NCBI GenBank assembly: GCA_041640035.1
Contig: JBEQBC010000003.1
Span: 44,945 to 108,944, forward strand
Origin: Candidatus Nanohaloarchaea archaeon
GTDB taxonomy: Archaea; Nanohalarchaeota; Nanosalinia; Nanosalinales; Nanosalinaceae
Direction of reading: 5' to 3'
DNA length: 64,000 nucleotides
Shown here one piece after another: positions 43,466 to 46,529 of the stretch. Made by a program: the position numbers and the translations under genes. The notes under the pieces were generated by a model, which ran no database searches, had not been told where the DNA came from, and saw nothing but the letters and a program-made list of their open reading frames with translations. Each line of letters starts with the position of its first letter. Positions within the stretch are counted from its first letter, which is position 1.

Positions 43466-43969
43466 TTATTCGAAGGATAGTTCGTATTCTTCGCCTGTTA
43501 CTTCTTCGACGACATGTTCGAACTCTTCGTTGCTCATGTTGATCTTTCCTTCGTATTCCTCGCTTACAACGATCTTTTTGCTCTGTCCGTCAGGCTTGAA
43601 GACTGTATTGATTGACTGGATCTCTGCCGGGCTTAGAAGTCCTTGGATTACTTCTCTGTTGTCTTCTGATTTCTCGACTATCCGGATTGATTTGTCTACC
43701 TGGCTTGCGATTTCTTTTACGATTTCTCCGCCTTTTCCTACGACCTTGGCTCCGTCTCCTTCTGCTGTTACTATTACGATGACATTTTCTGTGTCGATTG
43801 CTTTGATTATTTCGCTGTCGCGGAGTGATCCGTATTCGTTGCTGAGGTCGTGGAGTATCCTTGAGATTTTTATGTCGAGTTCTGTTATCTCGCCCTCGTC
43901 GAGCTTTTCCTGGCATCCGCTGCACAGGACATCGCTCTTTAGACATACATTACATATTGGTGCCTTCAT
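43466..43969 (-). CDS. NusA-like KH-domain protein with N-terminal Cys cluster
   Basis: PICNVC..LCSGC; VVGKGG KH motif; IRIVE. Confidence 0.8.
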   Translation of the reverse strand: MKAPICNVCLKSDVLCSGCQEKLDEGEITELDIKISRILHDLSNEYGSLRDSEIIKAIDTENVIVIVTAEGDGAKVVGKGGEIVKEIASQVDKSIRIVEKSEDNREVIQGLLSPAEIQSINTVFKPDGQSKKIVVSEEYEGKINMSNEEFEHVVEEVTGEEYELSFE

Positions 43970-44747: not shown

Positions 44748-45818
44748 TTACTCAAGCACCTCTAAGCCTAGGTCGTTTACATCGCCGGTGACTTCTGTTT
44801 CTTCATCTTCCTCGATATCACCGAGTACATATGGGCTTTCTACACCAGTGACGATGGATATAACTTGTAGCTTTCCTTCTAGTTCGTCCTTGATTCTTGC
44901 ACCCCAGATTACCTGTGCTGAGGTGTCAAGTTTCTGCTTGACTCTCTGTCCTACATCGTTGATCTCGTTGAGTGTAAGGTCTTGTCCTCCGGCTACATGA
45001 AGGAGTGCTCCATTCGCTCCGTCGAATTCTACATCGAGGAGTGGGTTGCTTAGTGCTTCGTGGATTGCTTCTTCTCCTTTGTTGTTGGTGTCGCTTTCTC
45101 CGTATCCTACTACTGCGACTCCTCCTTCGTTCATGATTGCCTGGACATCTGCGTAATCAAGGTTGACTAGTGAAGGTTTGCTGATTGTTTCTGTAATTCC
45201 CTGGATCATTGTTGTGATCAGTTCGTCTGCTACTCCGAATGCCTGATCCAGTGGCATGTCTCCTGCAATATCGAGTAGTTTGTCGTTTTCGATTACGATT
45301 GCGGTGTCGACATGCTGTCTTAGTTTGTAAAGTCCTTCTTCTGCTTTGCTCATTCGTGCGCCTTCAATCTCGAAAGGCATCGTTACTGTTCCGATTACTA
45401 TACATCCTTCTTTCTTTGCGATCTCTGCTAGGACTGGTGATACTCCTGTTCCGGTTCCTCCTCCAAGTCCTGCTGTGAGGAATACCATGTCTGCGTCTTT
45501 AAACAGGTTTCTTAGCTCTGCACGGTTTTCTTCTGCTGCCCGTGCTCCTTTTTCTGGGTGTCCTCCTGCTCCGAGTCCCTTTGTCAGGTCTCGGCCGACC
45601 AGTATTTTACGGTCTGCGGAAGACATTTTCAGGTGCTGCTTGTCAGTGTTGATAGCGACAGTTTCAGCTCCCTCTACTTCCTTATTCTGGATCCGGGTGA
45701 TCTGATTGTTACCAGCTCCCCCAGCTCCTACTACTAGGATTTTAGCATCTTTTACATCTTCGAGACTTTGTTTGTCAGCCTCTTCTTCTTGACCAGCGTT
45801 ATCGATTATGGATTCCAT
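44748..45818 (-). CDS. ftsZ: Cell division protein FtsZ (FtsZ2-like by eye)
   Basis: GAGGAGNN, INTD, GLGAGG, GGGTGTG, NLDYAD, IWGAR. Confidence 0.97.
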   Translation of the reverse strand: MESIIDNAGQEEEADKQSLEDVKDAKILVVGAGGAGNNQITRIQNKEVEGAETVAINTDKQHLKMSSADRKILVGRDLTKGLGAGGHPEKGARAAEENRAELRNLFKDADMVFLTAGLGGGTGTGVSPVLAEIAKKEGCIVIGTVTMPFEIEGARMSKAEEGLYKLRQHVDTAIVIENDKLLDIAGDMPLDQAFGVADELITTMIQGITETISKPSLVNLDYADVQAIMNEGGVAVVGYGESDTNNKGEEAIHEALSNPLLDVEFDGANGALLHVAGGQDLTLNEINDVGQRVKQKLDTSAQVIWGARIKDELEGKLQVISIVTGVESPYVLGDIEEDEETEVTGDVNDLGLEVLE

Positions 45819-45889
45819 TGTAAGTATCAGCCTGCGGTGTAGTTGCACCTAACCTTTTTAAGTCGGCATAGGTAATTCTAACCTAGAAC

Positions 45890-46056
45890 AAATCGAACTC
45901 GTCTTGCCCAAGACGAAAACTTACATGATTCACTTCGAGTTTGCCCAAACTCGAACTTGCCCGACTTTGATTCGACCTGTTTCAACTCGTGCCCGCGAGT
46001 CGAAAGGTCAACGAACCTCAGATCATGTGCCCGCATGATCGAAGTTCAATCGAGCT
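45890..46056 (-). ncRNA. Multi-hairpin array with five GGGCA motifs, upstream of ftsZ
   Basis: Four clear stems of different sequence and one weak one, each centred on GCCC (plus strand 45906, 45943, 45959, 45991, 46029). Strand is inferred. Confidence 0.65.
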
Positions 46057-46087
46057 ATCTTCTATACTAACTTATACTTGAAGCCTG

Positions 46088-46132
46088 TTTATAAATGTTT
46101 CCTTGAAGTAGTTACTGTTCACGACTGTTCAC
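46088..46132 (-). promoter_or_regulatory. TATA box with BRE-like purines and a 9-bp direct repeat
   Basis: Minus strand GGAAACA-TTTATAAA at 46088-46102; ACTGTTCAC twice at 46114-46122 and 46124-46132. Confidence 0.55.
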
Positions 46133-46217
46133 TGCACTCGAAAACAACATTCTCACGGATTCAACCCCTGGTATTCAGTAAGTTGTTTAAAGAAAACCCT
46201 CCTCAAACTTATCTGCC

Positions 46218-46496
46218 ATGGTAGACACTGAAGAAGTCGAGGAAGTAGCAGAGAACGCCAGAATAGAACTTGAAGAAGGAGAAGCAGAAGAGTTCGCAGA
46301 AGAATTCGAAGATATACTAGAGATGTTCGAGACCCTCGACGATGTAGGCACCGAAGATGTAGAACCCTCCTTCCACCCTGTAGAAGTATCACCAACAACC
46401 AGGGAAGACGAAGTAGAGGAAACACTCGACGAGAACCAAGTTTTCAAGAACACCGATAACGAGGAAGATGGTTTCTTCAAAGGACCGTCAGCTTAA
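46218..46496 (+). CDS. gatC: Asp/Glu-tRNA amidotransferase subunit C
   Basis: VAENARIEL, ILEMFETL, REDE, DGFFKGP. Confidence 0.92.
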   Translation: MVDTEEVEEVAENARIELEEGEAEEFAEEFEDILEMFETLDDVGTEDVEPSFHPVEVSPTTREDEVEETLDENQVFKNTDNEEDGFFKGPSA

Positions 46497-46529
46497 ACTT
46501 TCTAATTAACTATTCACTAAATACTTATC

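Follow-up and report, generated by a model that had tools for sequence, protein, structure and literature searches.

A conserved array of hairpins with a common loop upstream of ftsZ in two DPANN phyla, a candidate regulatory RNA for cell division

The 64,000-nucleotide stretch of DNA analysed here (the window; positions 44,945 to 108,944 of contig JBEQBC010000003.1, assembly GCA_041640035.1, from a Candidatus Nanohaloarchaea archaeon) carries an array of short hairpins in the 399-nt spacer (45819-46217) between the divergent genes ftsZ and gatC. The array is a structured element under strong selection, present as a single copy and new to the literature and libraries that we searched; it is linked to ftsZ in both Nanohaloarchaeota and Woesearchaeota, and in both phyla it is accompanied by promoter-like elements. 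From the sequence we infer that it is transcribed, on which strand, and that its loops are bound by a factor with an effect on ftsZ; most likely it acts as a regulatory RNA, so far undescribed, in the cell division of these archaea. Throughout, the ftsZ-sense strand of the window is the minus strand and the ftsZ-antisense strand is the plus strand, the start codon of ftsZ being at 45818-45816.

A preliminary description of the locus had placed four hairpins, H1 to H4, upstream of ftsZ, together with an unpaired copy of the loop motif and a TATA box, TTTATAAA, and all of these were found exactly where it had put them (Table 1); its interpretation of them is supported in part. When both strands were folded, as it had proposed, the plus strand gave -52.0 kcal/mol (z -4.48), which none of 200 dinucleotide shuffles equalled, and the minus strand gave -66.6 kcal/mol (z -4.04), which one of 200 shuffles equalled. 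The same kind of array is present in every one of 32 divergent ftsZ-gatC spacers sampled from the same family. Each has three to six hairpins with a GCCCAA-type loop (variants GCCCAA, TGCCCG and CGCCCAAA, with TCCCAA or TCCCAC in two genera), and the stems vary both between the hairpins of a spacer and between genera. In all 32 spacers the hairpin-loop copies recovered by a CCC-anchored scan lie on the strand opposite ftsZ. The constant loop of the preliminary description stands; judging from the relatives, its fixed part, given there as GGGCA/UGCCC, is better rendered as GCCCAA or GCCCR on the plus strand, which is UUGGGC or YGGGC in the ftsZ sense.

Covariation was measured with a covariance model, R1, comprising three shared hairpins (95 positions, 23 pairs), with which all 32 spacers were realigned; a plain MAFFT alignment followed by RNAalifold had given H3 alone, and R1 needed a structure supplied by hand. 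In the R1 alignment 87.0% of the cells are paired, and sliding the 3' partners by one to three columns lowers this share to 19.4-43.4%, an alignment fitted to the model being biased toward structure and the slid controls being computed on the identical alignment. Twenty of the 23 pairs have changed on both sides, and the covariation score is 0.468 against 0.171 for shuffles, with 0/500 shuffles as high. The both-side changes affect eight of nine pairs in helix 1 (H2), five of seven in helix 2 (H3), where the other two pairs are invariant, and all seven in helix 3 (H4). H1 is restricted to some genera and shows compensated stem swaps, for example TCGTCTT/AAGACGA in place of GAGTCTT/AAGACTC; in H2 the conserved AA 3' of the loop is paired in the window. 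The earlier observation that the stems differ and yet stay paired around a fixed loop, made on one spacer, thus extends to the whole family and, as described below, to Woesearchaeota.

Between the array and ftsZ lies a 43-nt block that is 80-91% identical across genera, far above the flanking N-terminal part of ftsZ at the DNA level. No covariation within this block is evident by eye in the family alignment, and it probably represents a promoter together with protein-binding DNA. A metagenome scan with the conserved block as query matched seven long DNA contigs. Two further helices were dropped on inspection by eye: a stem around the proximal TATA box (ACCTA...TAGGT), whose family variants are uncompensated, and a closing helix flanking the array (CTTAGAA/TTCTAAG), whose right-hand copy varies without compensation.

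The array is unique within its genome. Hairpins with a GCCC or GGGC loop and a stem of at least 5 bp occur seven times in the whole assembly (978,572 bp in 24 contigs, 45% G+C), and four of the seven form the array, within 142 bp. Since a looser genome-wide scan returned 75 scattered matches and no second cluster, the array is not a dispersed repeat; a repetitive extragenic palindromic or miniature inverted-repeat transposable element, the alternative that the preliminary description had itself raised, is ruled out by these counts together with the single hits of R1 per genome. A CRISPR array, in which identical direct repeats would alternate with unique spacers, is ruled out as well, as the stems vary between hairpins and only the loop is common. 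GCCC and GGGC together occur 1834 times in the assembly where about 5000 occurrences would be expected from base composition, and a depletion of about 2.7-fold therefore seems likely.

No known RNA family was recognised. Rfam 15 searched with positions 45500-46500 of the window gave only snoZ30a, inside ftsZ (14.9 bits where the gathering score is 80; E 3.2), and eight loci from both phyla gave no match at E up to 0.1. Among the papers returned by literature searches on the transcriptomes and non-coding RNA of Nanohaloarchaea and on their FtsZ, none describes the array in its title or abstract opening. The array is non-coding, as no open reading frame (ORF) is conserved across the 32 family spacers, and a 52-aa ORF at 45878-46036 (minus) was discarded as a small gene because it is unconserved in relatives. 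A replication origin was also considered and rejected: orc1/cdc6 lies about 395-560 kb from the array in four complete genomes (about 1.0-1.1 Mb, sizes rounded) and on a different contig in the window genome, the GC skew tracks the coding strand only, and no origin recognition box-like repeat was recognised at the locus. In these four complete relatives the ftsZ locus is found at about 0.40-0.44 of the chromosome from the single orc1/cdc6 (rounded sizes), so that its place varies little and is nearly opposite on the circular chromosome.

R1 matches 47 of the 70 genomes of the order, which are also the genomes covered by the phylum-level search, and every matching genome except one has a single copy. 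The exception has two copies on two contigs (E 2.9e-10 and E 3.4e-8), which may reflect a strain mixture or contamination and not a duplication. Among five R1-negative genomes that were examined, from four families, a script found motif hairpins upstream of the ftsZ orthologue in four, and in the fifth, which is A+T-rich, three hairpins with a CGCCAA loop were seen by eye. Each genome also has a second FtsZ, with about 50% identity to the array-bearing one, and the array was upstream of this second gene in none of five genomes. In three genomes gatC has been replaced or displaced by genes on the ftsZ strand, and the array, its TATA box and the TGTTCA boxes described below have all remained at ftsZ. 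It is thus to ftsZ that the unit belongs.

In a maximum-likelihood tree the array-less paralogue falls within a clade (support 100/99) that holds haloarchaeal and methanogen FtsZ and that we have taken as the FtsZ1-type. The array-bearing FtsZ of both phyla lie outside this clade, as does the clade whose genes are linked to the regulator gene cdrS (Haloferax, Marine Group IV and Methanoculleus). The tree being unrooted, the array-bearing FtsZ are candidates for strict FtsZ2 orthologues. Two records were conspicuous in the tree. The FtsZ of a metagenome-assembled genome (MAG) labelled Methanosarcinales falls inside the Woesearchaeota clade, and its contig may be mis-binned; the FtsZ of another MAG, whose record is labelled with the Nanohalarchaeota lineage, clusters with the array-less paralogue of Nanohaloarchaeota.

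The second phylum emerged from a blind scan for at least three hairpins sharing a loop 4-mer, in which 80 FtsZ loci fetched across archaea and bacteria by means of an FtsZ alignment were compared with the family spacers. The scan flagged 28 of the 32 Nanohaloarchaeota spacers but only five of the 80 other loci, and one of these five, with TGGC loops, was from Woesearchaeota. On the ftsZ-sense strand the Woesearchaeota loops read UUGGCG or UUGGGCG, the complement of the GCCCAA and CGCCAA of Nanohaloarchaeota. A Woesearchaeota order sample of 61 genomes, 58 of them with FtsZ, provided 30 fetched loci, 29 with usable upstream sequence; 22 of the 29 have at least one hairpin, 14 at least two and eight three, between about -100 and -260 from the ftsZ start codon. 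The loop is exactly TTGGCG in 24 of the 40 hairpins that have at least five Watson-Crick pairs, while most of their stems differ. Elsewhere in these genomes TTGGCG pairs are apparently scattered, and no other site has more than two copies. One of the first four Woesearchaeota examples comes from a genome flagged as unpublished, and the conclusion is independent of it.

The two phyla also share a promoter-like architecture. In the direction of ftsZ the order is a purine-rich element, a distal TATA box, the array, a TTCTWAG box, a proximal TATA box and a purine run resembling a Shine-Dalgarno (SD) sequence, the last seen by eye in printed sequences. The distal box TTTATAAA is invariant in all 32 family spacers and has the counterpart TTTAWATA in Woesearchaeota. 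The purine-rich element directly before it, which may resemble the archaeal B recognition element consensus, is of the CAGAAGA or GGAAACA type in Nanohaloarchaeota and AGAAATA in Woesearchaeota, where the strict pattern AGAAATA-TTTAWATA is present in sense orientation at 15 of 21 loci. From the distal TATA box to the first motif the median distance is 43.5 nt in Nanohaloarchaeota and 41 nt in Woesearchaeota, and the TTCTWAG box follows the array at 25/32 and 13/21 loci, respectively. The proximal TATA box (in the window TTTTTAA on plus, 45855-45861, hence TTAAAAA toward ftsZ) lies a median of 43 nt from the ATG in Nanohaloarchaeota (range 36-60, all 32 loci) and 71 nt in Woesearchaeota (11/21 loci by pattern). 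In Woesearchaeota loci L166-L194 a conserved GGAA(A/C)ATATAT was additionally noted between the TATATAAAYATTTCGG element and the SD, about 20-28 nt past the middle TATA box, and this may be the true ftsZ promoter, placed back to back with an antisense promoter.

Behind the distal TATA box, Nanohaloarchaeota have two to four TGTTCA boxes in direct or inverted arrangement (TGTTCA-N7-TGAACA), and these are kept in other families where gatC is not the neighbour. They look like candidate transcription-factor sites, that is, an operator. The upstream gene is co-oriented with ftsZ at 13 of 21 array-bearing Woesearchaeota loci, as judged with a crude ORF finder that reads from stop to stop and accepts ORFs of at least 90 aa, and at three of the five Nanohaloarchaeota loci of other families that were found with R1. 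At such loci the distal TATA box cannot serve a divergent gene, and it is mainly because of them that we take transcription from the distal promoter to run into the array and on to ftsZ. The TATA box of the window was already thought to point to the minus strand; since it stays with ftsZ in the absence of gatC and has a sense-orientation counterpart in Woesearchaeota, it is part of an array/ftsZ unit and most likely directed toward ftsZ.

The reading that we favour, with middling confidence, is that the array and its distal promoter form a cis-linked upstream RNA that shows UUGG(G)C loops to a factor and in this way tunes the FtsZ2-like gene. The array would be the structured core of a non-coding transcript on the ftsZ strand (minus), predicted to start about 25 nt downstream of TTTATAAA, near 46062-46066, from a promoter that is probably controlled via the TGTTCA boxes behind it. 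The RNA would pass through H4, H3, the unpaired copy, H2 and H1 before reaching the proximal ftsZ promoter, and each loop would hold UUGGGC or YGGGCA (UUGGCG in Woesearchaeota) single-stranded, giving three to eight copies of one short recognition sequence for a sequence-specific factor, most likely an RNA-binding protein. Depending on loop occupancy, the upstream transcript would either stop near the GTTCTWAG box or read into ftsZ as a long-leader mRNA, and the balance between the two would set the level of the array-bearing FtsZ paralogue. The array would then fill the regulatory slot that cdrS holds upstream of ftsZ2 in other archaea. Since it is linked to ftsZ in two phyla whatever gene lies upstream, the array most likely acts in cis. 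A wider proposal, which we make tentatively and with considerable doubt, is that the array is an ancient riboregulator of cell division in at least two DPANN phyla, used in place of cdrS, and that its loops would be read by a factor or paired with a convergent antisense copy to set the amount of the FtsZ2-like protein.

Several observations weigh against a sense-strand RNA read by a factor. The stems are almost purely Watson-Crick in both phyla, and the counts of G-U pairs, which had been offered as evidence for the minus strand, favour neither strand and contradict each other between the phyla: the inner stems of Nanohaloarchaeota contain ten A.C pairs (G.U if minus), nine G.T pairs (G.U if plus) and 18 other mismatches, and the Woesearchaeota sense strand has nine A.C and one G.T, leaning antisense if anything. 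In ensemble folds the mean unpaired probability of the motif cores is 0.95 on plus and 0.76 on minus, with plus higher in all 32 spacers, a gap that is partly due to composition, and in the sense RNA the unpaired copies of the motif are often drawn into base pairs. Neither TATA box could be oriented with a weight matrix derived from 36 tRNA promoters of the window genome (TTTAAAA, then AATT, then TACA about 26 nt on), the matrix scoring the proximal box higher toward ftsZ in 14 of 32 spacers and the distal box higher away from it in 20 of 32. The proximal box, with its fixed distance, may be the real ftsZ promoter, in which case the array would lie upstream of the core promoter and outside the mRNA. 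There is no T-run after the array on the sense strand in Nanohaloarchaeota, and a discrete end for a small RNA (sRNA) is not evident. Finally, no binding factor was found. The gene at 43466-43969 (minus) encodes a Zn-ribbon and KH protein that is NusA-like (NF005013, 159.7 bits, below the cut-off of 175) and syntenic downstream of ftsZ in five of five complete Nanohaloarchaeota relatives, each of which has a separate and more distant KH-domain match (24-31% identity) elsewhere; as a query this protein gave no match in five Woesearchaeota genomes, where the genes downstream of ftsZ are unrelated, and it was rejected as the partner of the array.

Much of this would be accommodated if the functional RNA were instead made from the plus strand, with GCCCAA or CGCCAA loops, by the proximal TATA box firing away from ftsZ, or if both strands were transcribed convergently so that a leader and a cis-antisense RNA met loop to loop. 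We regard transcription of this kind, two-strand or antisense-only, as a serious rival, albeit a somewhat improbable one. It would account for the more open motif cores on plus and for the excess of A.C pairs on the Woesearchaeota sense strand, and near-pure Watson-Crick stems are what would be expected if both strands must fold. The array moreover has few G on plus (A 1598, C 1494, T 1484, G 943), the proximal TATA box is flanked toward ftsZ by a CGAAA-like element at 11 of 21 Woesearchaeota loci and, by eye, at three of ten Nanohaloarchaeota loci outside the main set whose sequences were inspected, the three being of other families, and a conserved T-rich CATTTTCTA is found where a plus RNA would end, just before the distal TATA box. 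This T-run is, however, missing in the window's own genus, and a cis-antisense pair needs no common loop in every hairpin. The best-conserved element, the distal TATA box, would have nothing to do at loci where it is not followed by a gene on the plus strand. The proximal box reads TTAAAAA toward ftsZ, as do most tRNA promoters of this genome, and with its fixed spacing of 36-60 nt to the ATG it looks like an ordinary promoter of ftsZ.

Alternatively the array could act as DNA between two promoters, forming small cruciforms or single-strand hairpins under transcription-driven supercoiling, or offering GCCCAA/TTGGCG sites to a DNA-binding factor. The absence of a G-U bias on either strand, the position of the array, which in both phyla precedes a plausible core promoter of ftsZ, and the existence of stemless motif copies would suit such a role. 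Yet a factor that binds double-stranded DNA needs no co-varying inverted repeats around its site, and stems of 5-9 bp with loops of 4-8 nt, some of them extended only via bulges or mismatches, are probably short for the extrusion of cruciforms. The uniform orientation of the scanned hairpin loops and the remoteness of orc1/cdc6 also argue against this explanation, which we consider unlikely and a lesser rival than transcription of the other strand. Still less probable is a free trans-acting sponge sRNA of the CsrB/RsmZ kind that is beside ftsZ by coincidence; a protein sponge was one of the two readings originally suggested, next to a multi-site ftsZ leader. A short motif repeated in hairpin loops and unpaired stretches is indeed what titrating sRNAs have, but the suggestion was weakened by what the comparison revealed: CsrA (PF02599) was found in none of five genomes (the window genome being 89% complete) with a search that detected the controls in E. 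coli, B. subtilis and T. maritima, the loops are GGGC or GGCG and not of the GGA-containing Csr/Rsm type, and a clear terminator was not seen in Nanohaloarchaeota. A trans-acting gene would also not be expected to stay at ftsZ in two phyla while its other neighbour changes, and such strict linkage favours regulation in cis over free titration. We give a negligible probability to chance palindromes, to a mobile or repeat element and to an assembly artefact. Short palindromes are common in spacers, which is the only initial impression in favour of this; it is contradicted by the clustering of four of the seven hairpins, by the compensatory changes and the conservation in all 32 spacers, and by the single copy per genome and the recurrence in a second phylum.

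Table 1. Features of the ftsZ-gatC locus in the window (coordinates are window positions).
Feature	Position	Strand	Description
ftsZ (356 aa)	44748..45818	-	Pfam Tubulin and FtsZ_C; non-FtsZ1 paralogue by orthologue/paralogue comparison and tree
Conserved 43-nt block	45847..45889	.	proximal TATA box and CTAGAAC 45883-45889 (sense GTTCTAG)
H1 hairpin	45899-45916	-	7-bp stem, plus-strand loop GCCC; inverted repeat I6
H2 hairpin	45934-45955	-	9-bp stem, plus-strand loop GCCC; inverted repeat I2
Unpaired motif copy CTTGCCCGAC	45956..45965	-	GCCC at 45959-45962; relatives have one to three unpaired copies, GCCCAA, where the array faces ftsZ
H3 hairpin, extended	45975..46009	-	core 45985-46000, 5 bp, conserved ACTCG/CGAGT, plus-strand loop TGCCCG
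H4 hairpin	46021-46040	-	7-bp stem; plus-strand loop TGCCCG, CGGGCA in sense RNA
Putative distal promoter	46088..46102	-	TTTATAAA 46088-46095; purine-rich GGAAACA 46096-46102 just upstream on minus
Two direct ACTGTTCAC boxes, 10 bp apart	46114..46132	.	direct repeat D4; upstream of the putative distal promoter in the ftsZ direction
gatC	46218-46496	+	divergent from ftsZ

The extension of H3 contains one A.C pair on plus (G.U on minus) and a 2-nt bulge. On the gatC side of the spacer the ATG of gatC is preceded, at a distance of about 30 nt, by a TTTAAAG (46186-46192), and relatives have similar A-rich TATA boxes; this suggests that gatC has a promoter of its own, separate from the TATA box that we assign to ftsZ, and a leaderless or near-leaderless transcript.

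Regulation of FtsZ-based division in archaea is known only via the haloarchaeal CdrS and CdrL proteins, and the array is a concrete candidate for division control in genome-reduced, host-dependent archaea. If the proposal is true, it would be a new structured archaeal RNA family, and its simple repeated loop makes a pull-down of the partner straightforward. Should it prove to be a riboregulator, archaeal division would have its first example of conserved control by a cis-acting RNA, and the timing of division in host-dependent archaea would become open to study.

Among known systems, the sponge RNAs CsrB and RsmZ resemble the array in that many short G-rich motif copies are placed in loops and between hairpins. 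The Csr/Rsm sponges use repeated GGA-containing loops, whereas the array has no GGA core (GGGC, UUGGGC or UUGGCG in sense, GCCC(AA) on the opposite strand), is archaeal, is linked in cis to one gene and has no Rfam match; lacking both a GGA core and CsrA, it is not a Csr/Rsm system. The protein-read leaders of bacteria, such as TRAP-trp, PyrR, HutP and the ribonucleic antiterminators of LicT/SacY, in which protein occupancy decides between termination and read-through, likewise have repeated or hairpin-displayed recognition sequences between promoter and gene. For the array, in contrast, no homologous protein or terminator-antiterminator pair was identified, the transcription is archaeal and the array is separated from the gene by a second promoter-like element. 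Kissing-loop antisense systems (ColE1 RNA I/RNA II, R1 CopA/CopT) share with it several short stem-loops, possible convergent promoters and pure Watson-Crick stems that would fold on either strand, but they need no common loop sequence. There may be a likeness of TTTGGCGG to eukaryotic E2F sites; a search for PF02319 was blank in five genomes and also in its control, and is therefore uninformative.

A transcript that may be related has been described from halite-community stranded metatranscriptomes. According to Gelsinger et al. 2020 (PMC7002113), STRG.4577.1 is a conserved structured intergenic sRNA of 266 nt assigned to Nanohaloarchaea; it is about as long as the stretch that separates ftsZ from the distal promoter.

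The closest parallel is the cdrS-ftsZ2 module. As Darnell et al. (PMC7439475) have it, co-occurrence of cdrS and ftsZ2 is detectable in all archaeal clades except DPANN, where they report that CdrS went undetected, and there and in PMC8406309 cdrS is described as co-transcribed with ftsZ2. The position of cdrS upstream of haloarchaeal ftsZ2, which the preliminary description had cited and PMC7439475 supports, was visible in our own loci: in Haloferax sp., a Marine Group IV MAG and Methanoculleus, the gene immediately before ftsZ is an ORF of 58-61 aa that encodes a ribbon-helix-helix protein. In five Nanohaloarchaeota genomes a CdrS query gave only weak ribbon-helix-helix matches, none of them beside ftsZ. 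Both the module and the array are regulatory in character, the latter putatively, and both are immediately upstream of and linked to a non-FtsZ1 FtsZ gene; the module has a small ribbon-helix-helix ORF, whereas the corresponding slot in these archaea contains about 180 nt of hairpins and no ORF. In two DPANN phyla the array thus occupies the place of cdrS.

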